DNA of 64,000 nucleotides from Eledone cirrhosa (Eukaryota): the NCBI GenBank assembly GCA_964016885.1, contig OZ024746.1, forward strand, positions 88,784,001-88,848,000. The letters are read 5' to 3'. A program made the translations under genes and the position numbers. The notes under the pieces were generated by a model that saw only the letters and a list, made by a program, of their open reading frames with translations, ran no database searches and was not told the DNA's origin. Shown in pieces: positions 1,292 to 19,792 of this stretch. How positions within the stretch are numbered: position 1 is the first letter of the stretch; each line of letters opens with the position of its first letter.

Positions 1292-1537
1292 ACGTGGGAA
1301 AGTAAGAAATCGGAGAATAGACCGTTAAAACATGTTTATTTAAAACAGCACCTACGTACGTTTCGCCCAGTTGGGATTCTCAAGGACATAACTAATCAAA
1401 ACTCTTTCCGAGCAATGTAAGGAAGACTTTTGATTATTTATGCCCTTGAGAAGCCCAACTGGGCGAGACGTACGTAGGTGCTGTTTTAAATAAACATGTT
1501 TTAACCGTTTATTCTCCGATTTCTTACTTTCCCACGT
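1292..1537. repeat. Fold-back element (~115-bp arms, ~10-nt loop) with a hammerhead motif in each arm; PLE pLTR-derived
   Basis: acgtgggaaagtaagaaatcggagaat... (1292) is the reverse complement of ...attctccgatttcttactttcccacgt (1537); pairing continues to about 1414; right end abuts (TA)n. Confidence 0.9.
1443..1478 (+). ncRNA. Minimal type I hammerhead motif, U3-A8 core variant (GAAA mutated to GAGA in this arm; mirror copy 1349-1387 on -)
   Basis: cc-TTGAGAA-GCCC aact GGGC-GAGA-CGTACG-TA-gg; mirror arm keeps GAAA but has TCCC/GGGC; palindromic stem III ACGTACGT; stem I only ~2 bp. Confidence 0.6.
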
Positions 1538-1664
1538 ATATATATATATATATATATAAGCAAAAGTGATATTCAGTTTATTAGTAATTCAACAAATATA
1601 TATGTTCATAACTGATTCAGAGCACACGACAAGTTTTCTGGAGTATAATATTCAATGATATTAA

Positions 1665-1855
1665 ATAAATGGAAACTATATTTATAAAACCATATTTATT
1701 CTATTATATATATTTCAAGGGTACAAACACTTTATATATATTTCAAGGGTATCAACACTTTGTTTTTTATCTGATGAAAGCGTACCAAAGTGTGGATACC
1801 CTTGAAATATATATAATAAAATAAATATTGTTTTATAAATAGAATTCCCATTTAT
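1665..1855. repeat. Fold-back pLTR module with an internal ~30-nt duplication
   Basis: ataaatggaaactatatttataaaaccatatttatt...tttcaagggta (1665-1735) mirrors tacccttgaaatatatata...ttttataaatagaattcccatttat; further copies of the family on - at ~5152-5250 and ~33342-33432. Confidence 0.8.
1765..1821 (+). ncRNA. Type I hammerhead ribozyme motif
   Basis: TTTTAT-CTGATGA-AAG(cgtaccaaagtgtggatacc)CTT-GAAA-TATATA-TA-ATAAAA: stem I ttttat/ataaaa, canonical core, palindromic (TA) stem III. Confidence 0.8.
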
Positions 1856-2498
1856 CGAGGCCTGTTACAAAACTCTGTCACGACCGCAACCTATTAACGA
1901 TAGTAATGTGGTAACTATTAACTGTCCCCATCGAAGGTCAAATTCCTTCGCCAACAGAATATTCGACCCAACATAGTCATCAATGCTCGCTATTACATAT
2001 AGCTAGCATGTTAAATATTTAACCCAGACTTGGATAATTATAAGTTACCTCACCTACATTGTCTCTCACTTAAGCTCATTAGCACTTCTTAGCTATAAAT
2101 CACCTTTGACTTTAACTTTTCACGGAGTTACCGCCCTGAAACCCGTCTCTATTTAGTAAGGTAAATTTCCTTAAGTTGCCATTTTGTTACGCATAGGCAG
2201 ATCTTGCTTAATACAGCCTCGACAGAAGGGTACGGTTTGCGTATAGCAGACACTAGACATATCCAGGACCCCTTTCGTGAAATATCAATTTATGGAACAT
2301 TACATTCATATAAGCATCTTACTTTAATTTACTTTATATTCCTTATTCCATCTTATCTTTATCAATATTTTCATTATCTCATATTACCTAAGTTACTTAT
2401 CTTCATCTGAACCATATCAATAATGATCTATAATCAATTGATCCAGAAACATTATATGGAGTAGCGAAACAATTGTAAACGGACATTATTATTATTAT

Positions 2499-2689
2499 TG
2501 GATTGGCAGTATCTGTAGAGGGTCGGACGCCATGCTTTCCACCATAGTTACGTCCCTTTACGATCTGAGTTCAAATCCCGCCGAGGTTGACTTTGCCTTT
2601 CATCCTTACGGGGTCGATAAAATAAAGTACCAGTAATGCACTGGACAATTTCTGGCCGTGTGCCTAAAGTAGAAACAATTATTATTATT
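2499..2689 (+). mobile_element. tRNA-derived SINE, family A (resembles the common octopod SINE)
   Basis: A-box-like tggcagtatctg, B-box gagttcaaatccc, body gccgaggttgactttgcctttcatcc...ggggtcgataaaataaagtaccag, (att)n tail; six more copies in the window. Confidence 0.85.
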
Positions 2690-15785: not shown

Positions 15786-16139
15786 TATATATATATATAT
15801 ATATACAAAATTAAGATAAATCAAATGAATTTAATCCAAATCAAAATTATGGGTGTCATGCCAGAAAGACATGCGCCATATGACCCGCAAAATAAGCTCT
15901 AAGATTCTAACGAGTAGGTCCGAGCAGTATACAATAACTAGAAATTGATTAACATACAAATAAACATGAATAATAACACTCCTGTGATTATTCATGTTTA
16001 TTTATATGTTAATCAATTTCTAGTTATTATATATATATATATGTGTGTGTGTGTGTGTGTGTGTGTGTGTATATATATATATATATATATATATATATAT
16101 ATATATATATATACATATATATATATATAAGTCTAAAGT

Positions 16140-16392
16140 CTGTCTTAAACCACCAGGCTCATTCAGCCGGGGATTATCCCGGTTTCATGGCGTGAAGTGA
16201 CTGAGAGTACAAGACTCGCCCCTGGACATGGTTAAACCCACAGCTATTGATGAGGCTCATTTTCATCTGAGTAGACTGGAGCAACGTTGAAAGAAGTGTT
16301 TTGCTCAAGAACACAACACGTAACCCAGGAATCGAACCCACGACATTGTGATCATAAGTCCAATATACTTAACACCAGACCACATGCCTCCC
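16140..16392 (-). mobile_element. tRNA-derived SINE, family B
   Basis: The - strand has B-box gggttcgattcctgg followed by gtgttgtgttcttgagcaaaacactt; flanked by microsatellites. Confidence 0.65.
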
Positions 16393-19300
16393 CTGTGTAT
16401 ATATATATATATATATATATATATATATATATATATATAAGTGTATGTGTGTATGTGTGTGTCTGTATGTATATGTGTGTGTGTGTGTGATTGTACACTC
16501 ATTAACATTCAATCCCAATTGATTAGAATGTAGAGTTAAATGTTAATCAGTTAGGAATATATCTCCATAACCGTAGGAAATTGGAGTTAGCTTCTGGTAT
16601 CTCGATCCACCGGCAATGTTCCGGACTGAACCACAATGTGATAAAAATACGTAGCCTTATCCAACCAATAAAGATAATTGCAGATAATGAGCGAGTATTA
16701 TGACAAGTTGTGATATTTTTATAAATTGTTTATTTATACCACACTAATCCGGTGACTAGAGAAGCTTAACATGTACTCTGGCGTGCAAATACTTCAAACA
16801 GACGAGATATCGATAGAATTATTGGAGTTTTAACGCTCATAACAAAATCAGAGTTGCGAATCAATACAAGCTTCACATTTGAAAATTAGTAACATTTTAA
16901 TAGCATAAAGTAATGCTATTGTTCGGATAAAAACTTTATTAAATGACTATGAAGTTAGACTATGTCTTAAAGTATATTAGAAAAACGTTGAAAGTGAGGC
17001 TAATGAAGGACTGGGATGGAATTAATTTATGACAAAAATACCGTAATATCTAAAAGAGTGGCTTAAGCTTAAATCCGAGAGTTTAATTTATGGAAGATAG
17101 TCTTCGTTTAAGACAAATTAATCATTATGAACATATTGTTGTAGGGTGAACAGTATATCTATCTAGAAGTAATTCTCCAGAAACGTATATACAACTGTAT
17201 CAACATCATAAATATTTTAATTCTTCTCATACATCCTCGGTAAAATATATCGTATTTTGTTGAATTGACTTTAAATGTCACTGAGATGGACTAATAAGAC
17301 TGAATTATGACCAGTCAGAAGTACCATAATTGAGGAATTGAGTAAGATATTTTCAGTTCAGCTAATATTTAATATTCATCACCATCTACAAATATATGTA
17401 ATGTTCTAGTCGATGGTCACTGCATTAAAACTATTAACACTCAATTATGGTAAAAACTCACGTAGAGAAGACTTCAAAATTAGTGAAACATCAGAAATCA
17501 TACAGAAAGAGATACGGCGTTGATTTAAATTCCTCTTTCGTATTCAATTGAATCTTACTAATAATTCTAGGCCAAAAACATTCCAGCCTGCCGCAGGCAT
17601 TAGGTTACAAATTAAAGAAACTAATATGAAGTAAAAATTTGGTTTTAAAAAATGTCTAACTATTATACAACATTTTGTTAGGTTTCAGAGTGTTTAAATT
17701 TTTCCTGCCGTGAAATGTTTGTTGGTGTGGCCCAGATGACATATTACAAGTAACAAAATATGATTGTGTACGGTAGTGAAGCAGGTCATGTTTAATTTAT
17801 CAGCAAAGTCGTATGCACTATTTATGATAACAATACGCATTCGATGAATATCTTTTTAGCTAAAACTGTATGTTCATTCTGATGCGAAAACGAGTAAGAT
17901 TAGCAATAATTAACATTAGTAGTTTGGAATTGTTAACATAATTTCTTACTTCATTTGATATTAGAGAAATAAAAGGGAGCCGATGTGTAATTTGAAGCAA
18001 CATGACACAATATTTACTAAGAGTTTCTCATGTAATATATACCAACCCTTCCAGTTGAGTAACGACAATGTACTCGTATCACGATATTGACACAGGAAAT
18101 ATAAAGGCCCCTTGAGCAAATGTATTAGTGTCTTCAGAGAATACAAGACGATGCTAGTAAACCAGACACACAATTTAATAATTATCGCAGTAATATTATC
18201 TTACCTGCCATAGTTAAATAGAAACGTCAATTTTTGAATGTACAAACATTAGAATGTACAAACATTAGAATGGTCAAACGTAGTAAAGATATACATAACT
18301 TTATCAGCCAATTTGTAGTATTAGGATGATCATGATAATAGAAATATGCTGTAATCTGGAATATAGGACAGCAAGATTTACGAAGATAGTTCATAGTAAC
18401 AGTTAGGTATTGGATGATATAGCATACATTCCGATTAATTTCATCCTATTTACTATTATGTATTGTTTTCAGCATTTTCATTCCAAGCTATATTATTCCA
18501 TTAGCCTAATAAACTATCCAATGTGCAGAAGATTAAATATATTCCCATAACAATTGACATAAGCCGAAACATTATTTTCCTTTTAAATTACTGCTGCTCA
18601 GTATGTCTATGTCGTTAAATTGAACTTATTTTGAACAAACCAAAAACATACTATTAAGACGTTTACCACCCAATAATATTTAAAGACAAAATCTAATAAA
18701 CAAGACAAGAATATATAATATATATATATATATGGATACACATGGATATATATATACGTATATATATATATATATATATATATATATATATATATATGGA
18801 TATACATGGATATATATGTGTGTATATATATATATACACATATATATATATATATATATATATGATAATAATGATGGCTGCGCGTTGCAAATGGTGGTGC
18901 ATATGAAAAAGTGAGTCCTTCATCAGTGACCCTCCAACCGTCCCAGGCATTTCATCGCTTTAAGGGCCATATGCCTCAGGTTGGTGCGAACAACGGCTAA
19001 AAAAAGTCGTTGGGACACGTAAATAAAGGGGACGTTAGGGTAACAAACAAAATGGTTTAAGCAACGGAAAGTTGTATATATATATATATATATATATATA
19101 TATATATATATATATATATATACACACACACACCTACACACACACACCACCTTCAGCCCTCCCCGCTCGGACACCCCGTCTCCCTCTCCCCACTCTACCC
19201 GCCACCACCCCTACTCACCCCATACCCTTCCACCACCTGCTACCCCCTTTTAATTTCAGTTTATTTTGATCATGCCTTTATTTTTAAATTTTCTCTATAT

Positions 19301-19424
19301 ACATATATATACATATATATACATATATATACATCTATATACATATATATATATATATATATATATAGATAGATAGATATATAGATAAATATACACGGGT
19401 GTGTATGATTGTGTATAGAAGATT

Positions 19425-19792
19425 ATATTAATAAAAGGAATTCCAACTTTGTCTGATTTACTCGTTTTATTTACAATCCTTTAAAATTTATGATGGTATT
19501 AGAATGAAATAGTATGGTAGAACATTAAATATTAAGTGATAATTGAACAAGTACTTTCATGCTTTCGCAATCTTCAGGTTGATAATGTGTGGTGACAGAC
19601 AAGTTTGCAACTTTCAACAGTTGAAAATTGCAAACTTGACTGAAGATTGCGAAAGCATGAAAGTACTTGTTCAATTAACACTTAACATTTAATATTCTAC
19701 CATACTATTTCATTCTAATACCATTAAACATTTTAAAGGATTGTAAATAAAACGAGTAAATCAGACAAAGCTTGAATTCCATTTATTAATAT
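19425..19792. repeat. Fold-back element (~150-bp outer arms plus inner hairpin) with mirrored hammerhead motifs
   Basis: tttgtctgatttactcgttttatttacaatcctttaaaat... mirrors ...ttttaaaggattgtaaataaaacgagtaaatcagacaaag; inner hairpin at 19600-19638. Confidence 0.92.
19637..19671 (+). ncRNA. Ultra-minimal hammerhead-like motif (mirror copy 19546-19580 on -)
   Basis: CTGAAGA-tTGC GAAA GCAt-GAAA-GTAC-TT-gtt; GNRA-capped stem II, palindromic stem III AAGTACTT; stem I aac/gtt intact in the - copy; T.T mismatch at the base of stem II. Confidence 0.6.

Follow-up and report, generated by a model that had tools for sequence, protein, structure and literature searches.

A 64-kb window of the Eledone cirrhosa genome (64,000 nucleotides of contig OZ024746.1 of assembly GCA_964016885.1, forward strand, positions 88,784,001 to 88,848,000) contains a series of short fold-back modules. 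In each of them, two copies of one 3' end, both truncated at the 5' side, face each other head-to-head in TA repeats; this end belongs to a Penelope-like element (PLE) or to a non-coding tandem unit. The genome is large (3.0 Gb) and rich in microsatellites, and the window, by which we mean the whole analysed stretch, is dense in the remains of PLEs. That the modules are PLE-type insertions is close to certain; they represent a known pattern and not a new class of mobile ribozyme, and as a claim of class the result is an ordinary one. The parts of some interest are a model for the priming of these insertions and a tRNA-headed passenger. Tails, arm lengths and alleles counted in copies fetched from the genome suggest that a single RNA probably serves both nicked strands of the target as template, with priming of reverse transcription at each of its two start sites.

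Layout of the modules and their hammerheads

Fold-backs were detected by a self-BLAST of the window after masking. They were recovered at all five places proposed by an earlier note on this DNA, namely 1296-1533 (90%), 1665-1855 (72%), 3610-3709 (70%), 14807-15089 (92%) and 19429-19788 (83%). The window holds 12 near inverted pairs of at least 40 nt, as against 0 in each of 10 block shuffles, and the predicted fold of module 1 reaches -180.5 kcal/mol (z -30.8). A sixth module, suspected at 63105-63212, has a right arm of only 15 nt, and no hammerhead was found in it. The common layout that had been described is correct as to the head-to-head arms and incorrect as to their symmetry, since every module carries a tail of 40-160 nt on one side only, outside the limits first assigned to it (Table 1). 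Anchoring in (TA)n is seen in most modules, the cut right end of module 2 having none, and the modules are themselves non-coding as claimed, while parent elements are coding. Module 3 of the window is an old, diverged copy.

Table 1. Coordinates of the fold-back modules and of related PLE features in the window
Feature	Coordinates	Strand	Description
Module 1 tail	1130..1291	-	~160 nt, between (TA)n and left arm; none at right end
Module 1 tail-bearing arm	1292..1401	-	110 nt of PLE 3' end; minimal U3-A8 hammerhead 1383-1353
Module 1 tailless arm	1397..1537	+	141 nt; 5-nt junction overlap; ends in (TA)n
Module 2 tail	1558..1654	-	begins in the (TA)n that closes module 1
Module 2 fold-back	1655..1855		78-nt tail arm, 23-nt insert, plus arm; inner duplication; right end cut, no (TA)n
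Module 3	3571..3712 (limits approximate)		tail remnant ~3571-3602; arms of 61 and 49 nt; (TA)n on right only
Module 4	14640..15095		tail ~14640-14800; arms of ~150 nt each; (TA)n at both ends
Module 5 tail	19385..19424	-	40 nt
Module 5 fold-back	19425..19792		both arms extend to the family's cap near 197 nt; (TA)n on right
Module 6	63058..63212		tail, 85-nt arm and 15-nt arm; (TA)n at both ends
Longer end of module 3 sister subfamily	41600..41977	+	full U3-A8 hammerhead 41796-41879, then tail and (TA)n; start is the limit of reading
Head-to-head PLE	26419..33280		6.9 kb; 3.2-kb arms (96%), tail on right only
Element of the same layout	12732..15783		438-bp inverted 3' end on left (no tail); ORF fragment 13143-14102; tail on right

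A full or half hammerhead near the centre of each arm had also been proposed. We used a relaxed type I descriptor of our own making, which allows either C3-G8 or U3-A8 (an earlier, strict form missed modules 1 and 5). In the window, this descriptor recovers a hammerhead in one arm each of modules 1 (minus, 1383-1353), 2 (plus, 1771-1815) and 5 (minus, 19577-19549); modules 3, 4 and 6 give no match. The partner arms bear its remnants: the second hammerhead of module 1 (1446-1476) has GAAA changed to GAGA, a 20-nt deletion has removed the stem I strand in the plus arm of module 5, and the tail arm of module 2 holds the 3' half only. Modules 3 and 4 retain only the part downstream of the 5' core, which in module 3 amounts to the 3' half; in module 4 the core is incomplete because the fold centre lies just inside its U3-A8 core. 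Better-kept copies of the families (loci L031 and L099) have a full hammerhead in both arms; 18 loci of module 1 yield 24 motif matches, and 25 loci of module 5 yield 34. With a stricter descriptor the window gives 6 matches, against a mean of 0.37 over 30 shuffles. The Rfam hammerhead models gave no match to the modules in our Rfam scans (for the window scan, none among the best 150 of 213 matches), and Rfam miRNA matches were set aside as generic hairpins or microsatellites. We infer that the hammerheads ride along in both arms as passengers, and that the point at which copying ended decided whether an arm received a full or a half motif.

In the sister subfamily of module 3, TATA-like and initiator-like motifs lie within the stem II loop of the hammerhead (window 41796-41879; L193, L203, L209), and short copies of the module 3 family consequently hold only its 3' half. 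Judging from these motifs, a transcript from such a promoter would begin with the 3' half of the ribozyme and would need a tandem copy to supply the 5' half.

Parent elements

Genome searches with the modules gave 191 to 1886 first-look candidates per query, figures that are lower bounds and not copy numbers; for each search the 40 best candidates were scored and up to 30 were fetched, with flanks of 1.5 kb in the module 5 set. The suggestion that the modules are extremely 5'-truncated, inverted PLE insertions is borne out for modules 1, 2, 3 and 5, which map to the 3' ends of PLEs that bear open reading frames (ORFs). The arms of module 5 run on into a 338-aa frame with a Pfam GIY-YIG match above the cut-off (E 1.6e-6, L109), and those of module 1 into frames of 339-350 aa (L250, L032) whose linker is Cys-rich and whose end is GIY-YIG-like. 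Pfam GIY-YIG has no match in the L250 or L020 frames; the L250 frame aligns with the GIY-YIG-type ORFs of the window in tblastn at E 5e-16 to 1e-20. The sister subfamily of module 3, which has the same tail, shares a 0.9-kb untranslated region (UTR) with the ORF-bearing L209, whose ORF matches Pfam GIY-YIG below the cut-off (E 0.0045). Module 2 is contiguous over 1.8 kb (90-92%) with a similar ORF in L303, L305 and L323, linked by tblastn to the GIY-YIG-type ORFs, and its parent, a PLE with an ORF, has ~1.3 kb of 3' UTR. Cys-rich linkers are visible in the parent ORFs.

Modules 1, 2, 3 and 5 thus display the traits of insertion units of endonuclease-bearing (EN+) PLEs: a GIY-YIG-type ORF upstream of the terminal repeat, a minimal type I hammerhead in the pseudo-long terminal repeat (pLTR), an inverted, 5'-truncated head-to-head copy, a tail at one end and a bias to microsatellite targets. 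The tailless ends with an exact match are followed by (TA)3 or more in 25/25 and 43/45 cases in two sets. Membership of the Naiad group was ruled out by the C-terminal endonuclease and by the presence of hammerheads. The module 2 family has a cap near 160 nt, and some 70 nt upstream of it lies a motif that we take to be octamer-like (L138; L300-L329); a promoter of the small-nuclear-RNA type is possible at this position.

The parents of modules 4 and 6 are non-coding. That of module 4 forms tandem arrays of a 591-bp unit with one U3-A8 hammerhead per unit (stems of 5 and 6 bp, one bulge allowed), and a match to a PLE ORF is absent from the 4 loci checked of 26. With at least two tandem non-coding units, each bearing a type I hammerhead, it has the sequence layout of a non-LTR retrozyme. 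The arrays change orientation once, and their two arms reach 3 and 4 units that are 98-100% identical (G000:C1:221777646-221781354; L040-L064); this family is young. The parent of module 6 is a tandem unit of 259 bp (L210-L239, L270-L299), whose tRNA-like head is intact and precedes a T run. The head scores 45.5 bits with the Rfam tRNA model, is called by ARAGORN in 3/6 loci, and has an anticodon read as CGA and a short variable loop; such a tRNA head, with internal promoter boxes, is a feature that the unit has in common with tRNA-derived short interspersed elements (SINEs). This unit, for which 1367-1657 first-look candidates were obtained and sister forms are seen in L114, L184, L216 and L129, inserts with the PLE signature. 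Its layout is retrozyme-like, and the hammerhead that would make it a retrozyme was found neither by two descriptors nor by Rfam. A look for an autonomous partner element with the same 3' end gave, among the fetched loci, only tRNA-headed or short sister copies, no genome-wide search for one having been made. In the window, module 6 is nested in the microsatellite between the inverted arms that begin at 62846 and 63243.

In both modules 4 and 6 the two arms cross unit boundaries, which suggests that they may have been copied from circular or multimeric RNA templates. It is likely that the non-coding tandem units behind these modules use PLE enzymes.

Tails, stops and the priming of the two arms

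Exactly one arm is tailed in 147/157 pairs, from 243 loci examined, and in 128/137 of the pairs that belong to the four PLE families of modules 1, 2, 3 and 5. In the individual sets, pairs with no, one and two tails number 1/37/0, 2/35/2, 3/10/0, 0/29/0, 0/17/1 and 0/19/1. As a tail is present on 13/30 tip-selected module 5 ends, independence would predict about half of the pairs to be one-tailed; the observed frequency lies above this and the two ends are therefore coupled. Module 4, for which there is no unbiased sample (a search with its tail alone gave no candidates, although the window itself has this sequence), was omitted from the 157 because its arrays hold inner tails: a scripted count (0/9/9) took in positions inside arrays, and the outer ends of the arrays have one tail in 7/8.

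Either arm may be the longer one. Among 37 module 1 pairs the tail arm is shorter in 17, longer in 14 and within 5 nt of its partner in 6 (lengths were recorded up to 900, and at poly-T runs the length of some long arms is underestimated). The extreme cases L019 and L020 have a tail arm of 74-152 nt opposite a tailless arm of 650-2100 nt, which holds no tail to copy, and in the module 4 arrays L046 and L051 the tail arm is likewise the shorter. The two arms also share alleles: at the module 1 allele site they agree in 28/30 pairs, and variable columns mismatch within as compared to between loci at 7% versus 43% in module 1 and 18% versus 42% in module 5. The coupling of the tails, the freedom of either arm to be longer and the shared alleles all fit two primings on one RNA.

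The earlier note had called for a check on whether the fold centre differs from locus to locus, and the junctions prove to be mostly distinct: 36/37 in module 1, 10/10 in module 2, 17/17 and 14/29 in two module 3 subfamilies, 9/9 in module 4, 28/35 in module 5 and 11/19 in module 6. Most have few-base overlaps or templated inserts, and an arm may be as short as 20 nt or exceed 2 kb, some arms including ORF ends. Exact centres recur in 9/29 module 3 and 8/19 module 6 loci, in sets that are partly query-biased; these lie at natural palindromes or caps, i.e. at likely stops of reverse transcription. Thus 52/70 module 5 arms stop at 185-197 nt in a partly query-biased set, and 12/29 stop at 192-200 nt, ~30 nt below a TATA-like box, in the tip-selected set. 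In the sister subfamily of module 3, most arms end at 47-64 nt, ~30 nt below the TATA-like motif in the stem II loop. In module 6 the tail arm stops at tRNA positions 59-68 in 24/30 loci, at 36-58 in 0, at the tRNA 3' end in 2 and further in in 4. Position A58 of tRNAs can be methylated (m1A58), and stops just 3' of the A58 of the T-loop would fit a block at this base if it is so modified.

In the mechanism that we propose, an RT-GIY-YIG protein (RT, reverse transcriptase), predicted by others to be a dimer, would cut both strands of a TA tract. One 3' end would prime at the outer start site, so copying the tail and the pLTR, and the other at the inner site, copying the pLTR only. Each complementary DNA (cDNA) would then stop independently. 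Frequent stops would be the 5' terminus of the RNA, ~30 nt below a TATA-like box, stem II of the hammerhead, and the position just 3' of the tRNA A58. The 3' ends of the two cDNAs would anneal by a few bases or via templated inserts and prime second strands on each other. Such paired twin priming would account at once for the inverted copy and for the tail on a single side, and the resulting head-to-head copies are likely to be dead on arrival. A PLE protein has been found to cut and extend both strands in vitro, starting at two sites that bound the tail (PMC11167929). A broader proposal, which we put forward only tentatively, is that PLEs integrate by paired twin priming (one ribonucleoprotein, one RNA, both strands, both start sites) and that the same machinery moves the tRNA-headed, hammerhead-less 259-bp unit, a SINE-like PLE passenger for which circular or multimeric RNA would serve as the template and the modified A58 of the tRNA as the usual stop.

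A single priming followed by snap-back, in which a tail-first cDNA folds back and is copied toward the target as far as the inner site, with later loss of the centre trimming either arm, seems doubtful to us. It accounts for the single tail and the shared alleles, as well as for near-perfect hairpins (L031, L099) and the tiny self-primed loops at the module 5 cap, and self-priming has already been proposed for inverted PLE junctions (PMC3846280). A snap-back copy can never exceed its template, however, so that the tail arm has to be the longer one. It is the shorter in 17/37 module 1 pairs, by up to 2 kb, and in L046 and L051; the tailless cDNAs with ORF ends in L019 and L020 have no tail, and snap-back therefore fits less well. 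One deletion of 20 nt is confined to the tail arm at 3 loci and to the tailless arm at 1, with 1 more ambiguous, and its restriction to the tail arm would demand a later event under snap-back. Snap-back also has to end exactly at the inner site.

It is improbable that each protomer used an RNA molecule of its own for twin priming. This would give independent arm lengths and the mostly arm-specific rare variants, but leaves the presence of exactly one tail unexplained, and subfamily alleles are common to both arms far above chance even though several subfamilies coexist.

The mobile hairpin-ribozyme class that had been entertained, a non-autonomous element moving as a whole hairpin, now appears very improbable. 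Some centres do recur exactly, as it would lead one to expect, but same-centre copies of module 3 are no closer to each other than other pairs (mean distance 0.128 vs 0.119; 4063/5000 shuffles as low). On the module 3 tree, from a short alignment, the centre changes 5 times, as against 5.3 in shuffles, with at least 2 changes forced by supported branches. L170 was omitted from this test as a duplicate of L171, and the window copy was omitted from the tree. As same-centre copies are not relatives, the hairpins were made repeatedly rather than copied as units, and they likely arise afresh at each insertion, relatedness having been tested in one family (module 3). The position of the recurrent centres at palindromes or caps and the wide range of arm lengths, extending into ORF ends, also speak against this class, and among the families surveyed there is no fixed structure whose one-junction copies form a clade, as would be expected of a mobile hairpin or a miniature inverted-repeat transposable element (MITE). 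MITEs with long terminal inverted repeats, or fold-back artefacts of assembly, have a negligible probability: the ends are inverted in TA targets and palindromes can arise as library artefacts, but arm length varies, the ends differ by a tail, arm divergence runs from 0 to over 20%, and the content is a retroelement 3' end, such that the ORF link and tail asymmetry refute both.

Several points weigh against paired priming on one RNA. Two tails occur in 4/157 pairs and none in 6/157. Rare variants are mostly confined to one arm (198 versus 28 and 201 versus 13), and 15/29 tip-selected module 5 loci have no partner arm within the fetched 1.5 kb. Four of the sets were chosen for the tail or for the junction of the window. 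The start sites and m1A58 are read from motifs alone, and the fetched flanks of the four parents stop short of the RT core, so the RT scan covers only the 744-aa ORF of the window itself. Palindromes lose their centres after insertion, which could shorten the tail arm and mimic independent lengths, and sharing of alleles is also expected from snap-back, from gene conversion between arms, or from one master being active at a time. In the in vitro work (PMC11167929) no difference in start site between the strands was seen, and the pairing of sites falls outside its tests.

Other elements of the window and comparison with known systems

The 6.9-kb head-to-head element at 26419-33280 has an RT plus endonuclease ORF of 744 aa at 30526-32760, on its right arm, which matches RVT_1 below the cut-off (E 9.6e-4), and a mirrored pair of hammerheads, one at 26605 (minus) and one at 33022 (plus). 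The inner microsatellite of the element at 12732-15783 contains module 4, and in general PLE elements of the window nest in one another's (TA)n tracts. Further inverted pairs are found at 46974-47309 and 47928-48277; 62846-62965 and 63243-63366; 7198-7239; 40481-40529; and 58613-58667 and 59508-59562. More PLE ends lie at 8105-10480 and 35515-37711; 33335-33466; 5144-5285; 4839-5033; and 33542-33857; among them are a family whose hammerhead lies at 10288-10332, two copies from the module 2 family that have one arm each, a piece of the module 4 tail and a tailed single arm of the 26419 family. A ~190-bp interspersed repeat, SINE-like by appearance, is present in 7 copies (2487-2690, 5788-5968, 21414-21584, 22285-22463, 38311-38497, 42300-42497, 62483-62663).

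In L1 twin priming, two target-primed starts on one RNA are joined by microhomology, giving an inversion. The L1 arms represent non-overlapping parts of the RNA, whereas both arms of the modules start at the 3' end and overlap, and hence give a palindrome. Dispersed in large numbers, such palindromes could provide a source of double-stranded RNA. The proposal of the earlier note that a module transcript would be double-stranded and mask its own ribozyme agrees with the predicted fold; no RNA containing the module 5 end was listed, which speaks neither for nor against expression.

Among PLEs, insertion units with an inverted 5'-truncated copy, targeting of (TA)n and a tail of 30-40 bp that is often confined to one end are described in Craig 2021 (PMC8557442), and head-to-head palindromic junctions, for which self-priming was proposed, in Arkhipova 2013 (PMC3846280). 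The modules resemble the canonical PLEs with a C-terminal endonuclease (Penelope/Poseidon, Neptune, Nematis, Hydra) in the head-to-head truncated copy, the tail at one end, the (TA)n targets, the hammerhead in the pLTR and the GIY-YIG ORF upstream. They differ in being often reduced to two pLTR stubs, in tails of 40-160 nt as compared to the 30-40 described, and in a one-tail rule that is close to strict. Minimal type I PLE hammerheads with a short palindromic helix III and a U3-A8 core variant, as well as pairs on opposite strands 100-700 bp apart, are already on record in Cervera and De la Pena 2014 (PMC4209133). The modules share all three features, and the module 3 family is unlike the hammerheads described there in having promoter-like motifs inside the stem II loop.

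How PLEs come to form inverted units with a one-sided tail is treated as still open, with a call for in vitro work, in PMC8557442, and later integration steps are left unvalidated in PMC11167929. Neither paired twin priming for PLEs nor a tRNA-headed PLE passenger was found in the accessible literature, a search that excludes subscription papers, Repbase and supplements. Several families with hundreds to about two thousand first-look candidates each now turn this question into countable rules: one tail, either arm longer, the same template and fixed stops.

The parent of module 4 is like the animal non-LTR retrozymes, defined in PMC7229834, in being a non-coding tandem unit with one type I hammerhead each, and animal retrozymes have been derived from PLE pLTRs in a 2026 preprint (bioRxiv 10.64898/2026.07.22.740005). 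At 591 bp, as compared to 170-400 nt, it is larger than these; unlike them, it forms arrays that turn head-to-head and have a single tail, the signature of PLEs.

Module 6, for its part, is like tRNA-derived SINEs and the Sm-alpha-type repeats of schistosomes, as these are generally understood, in its tRNA head followed by a T run. It is unlike them in being tandem and permuted, with no poly(A) seen and no hammerhead found, and in having PLE-type ends. If modules 4 and 6 are PLE passengers, these ends would tie retrozyme-like and tRNA-headed repeats to PLE enzymes by the signature of their insertion, and not by phylogeny.

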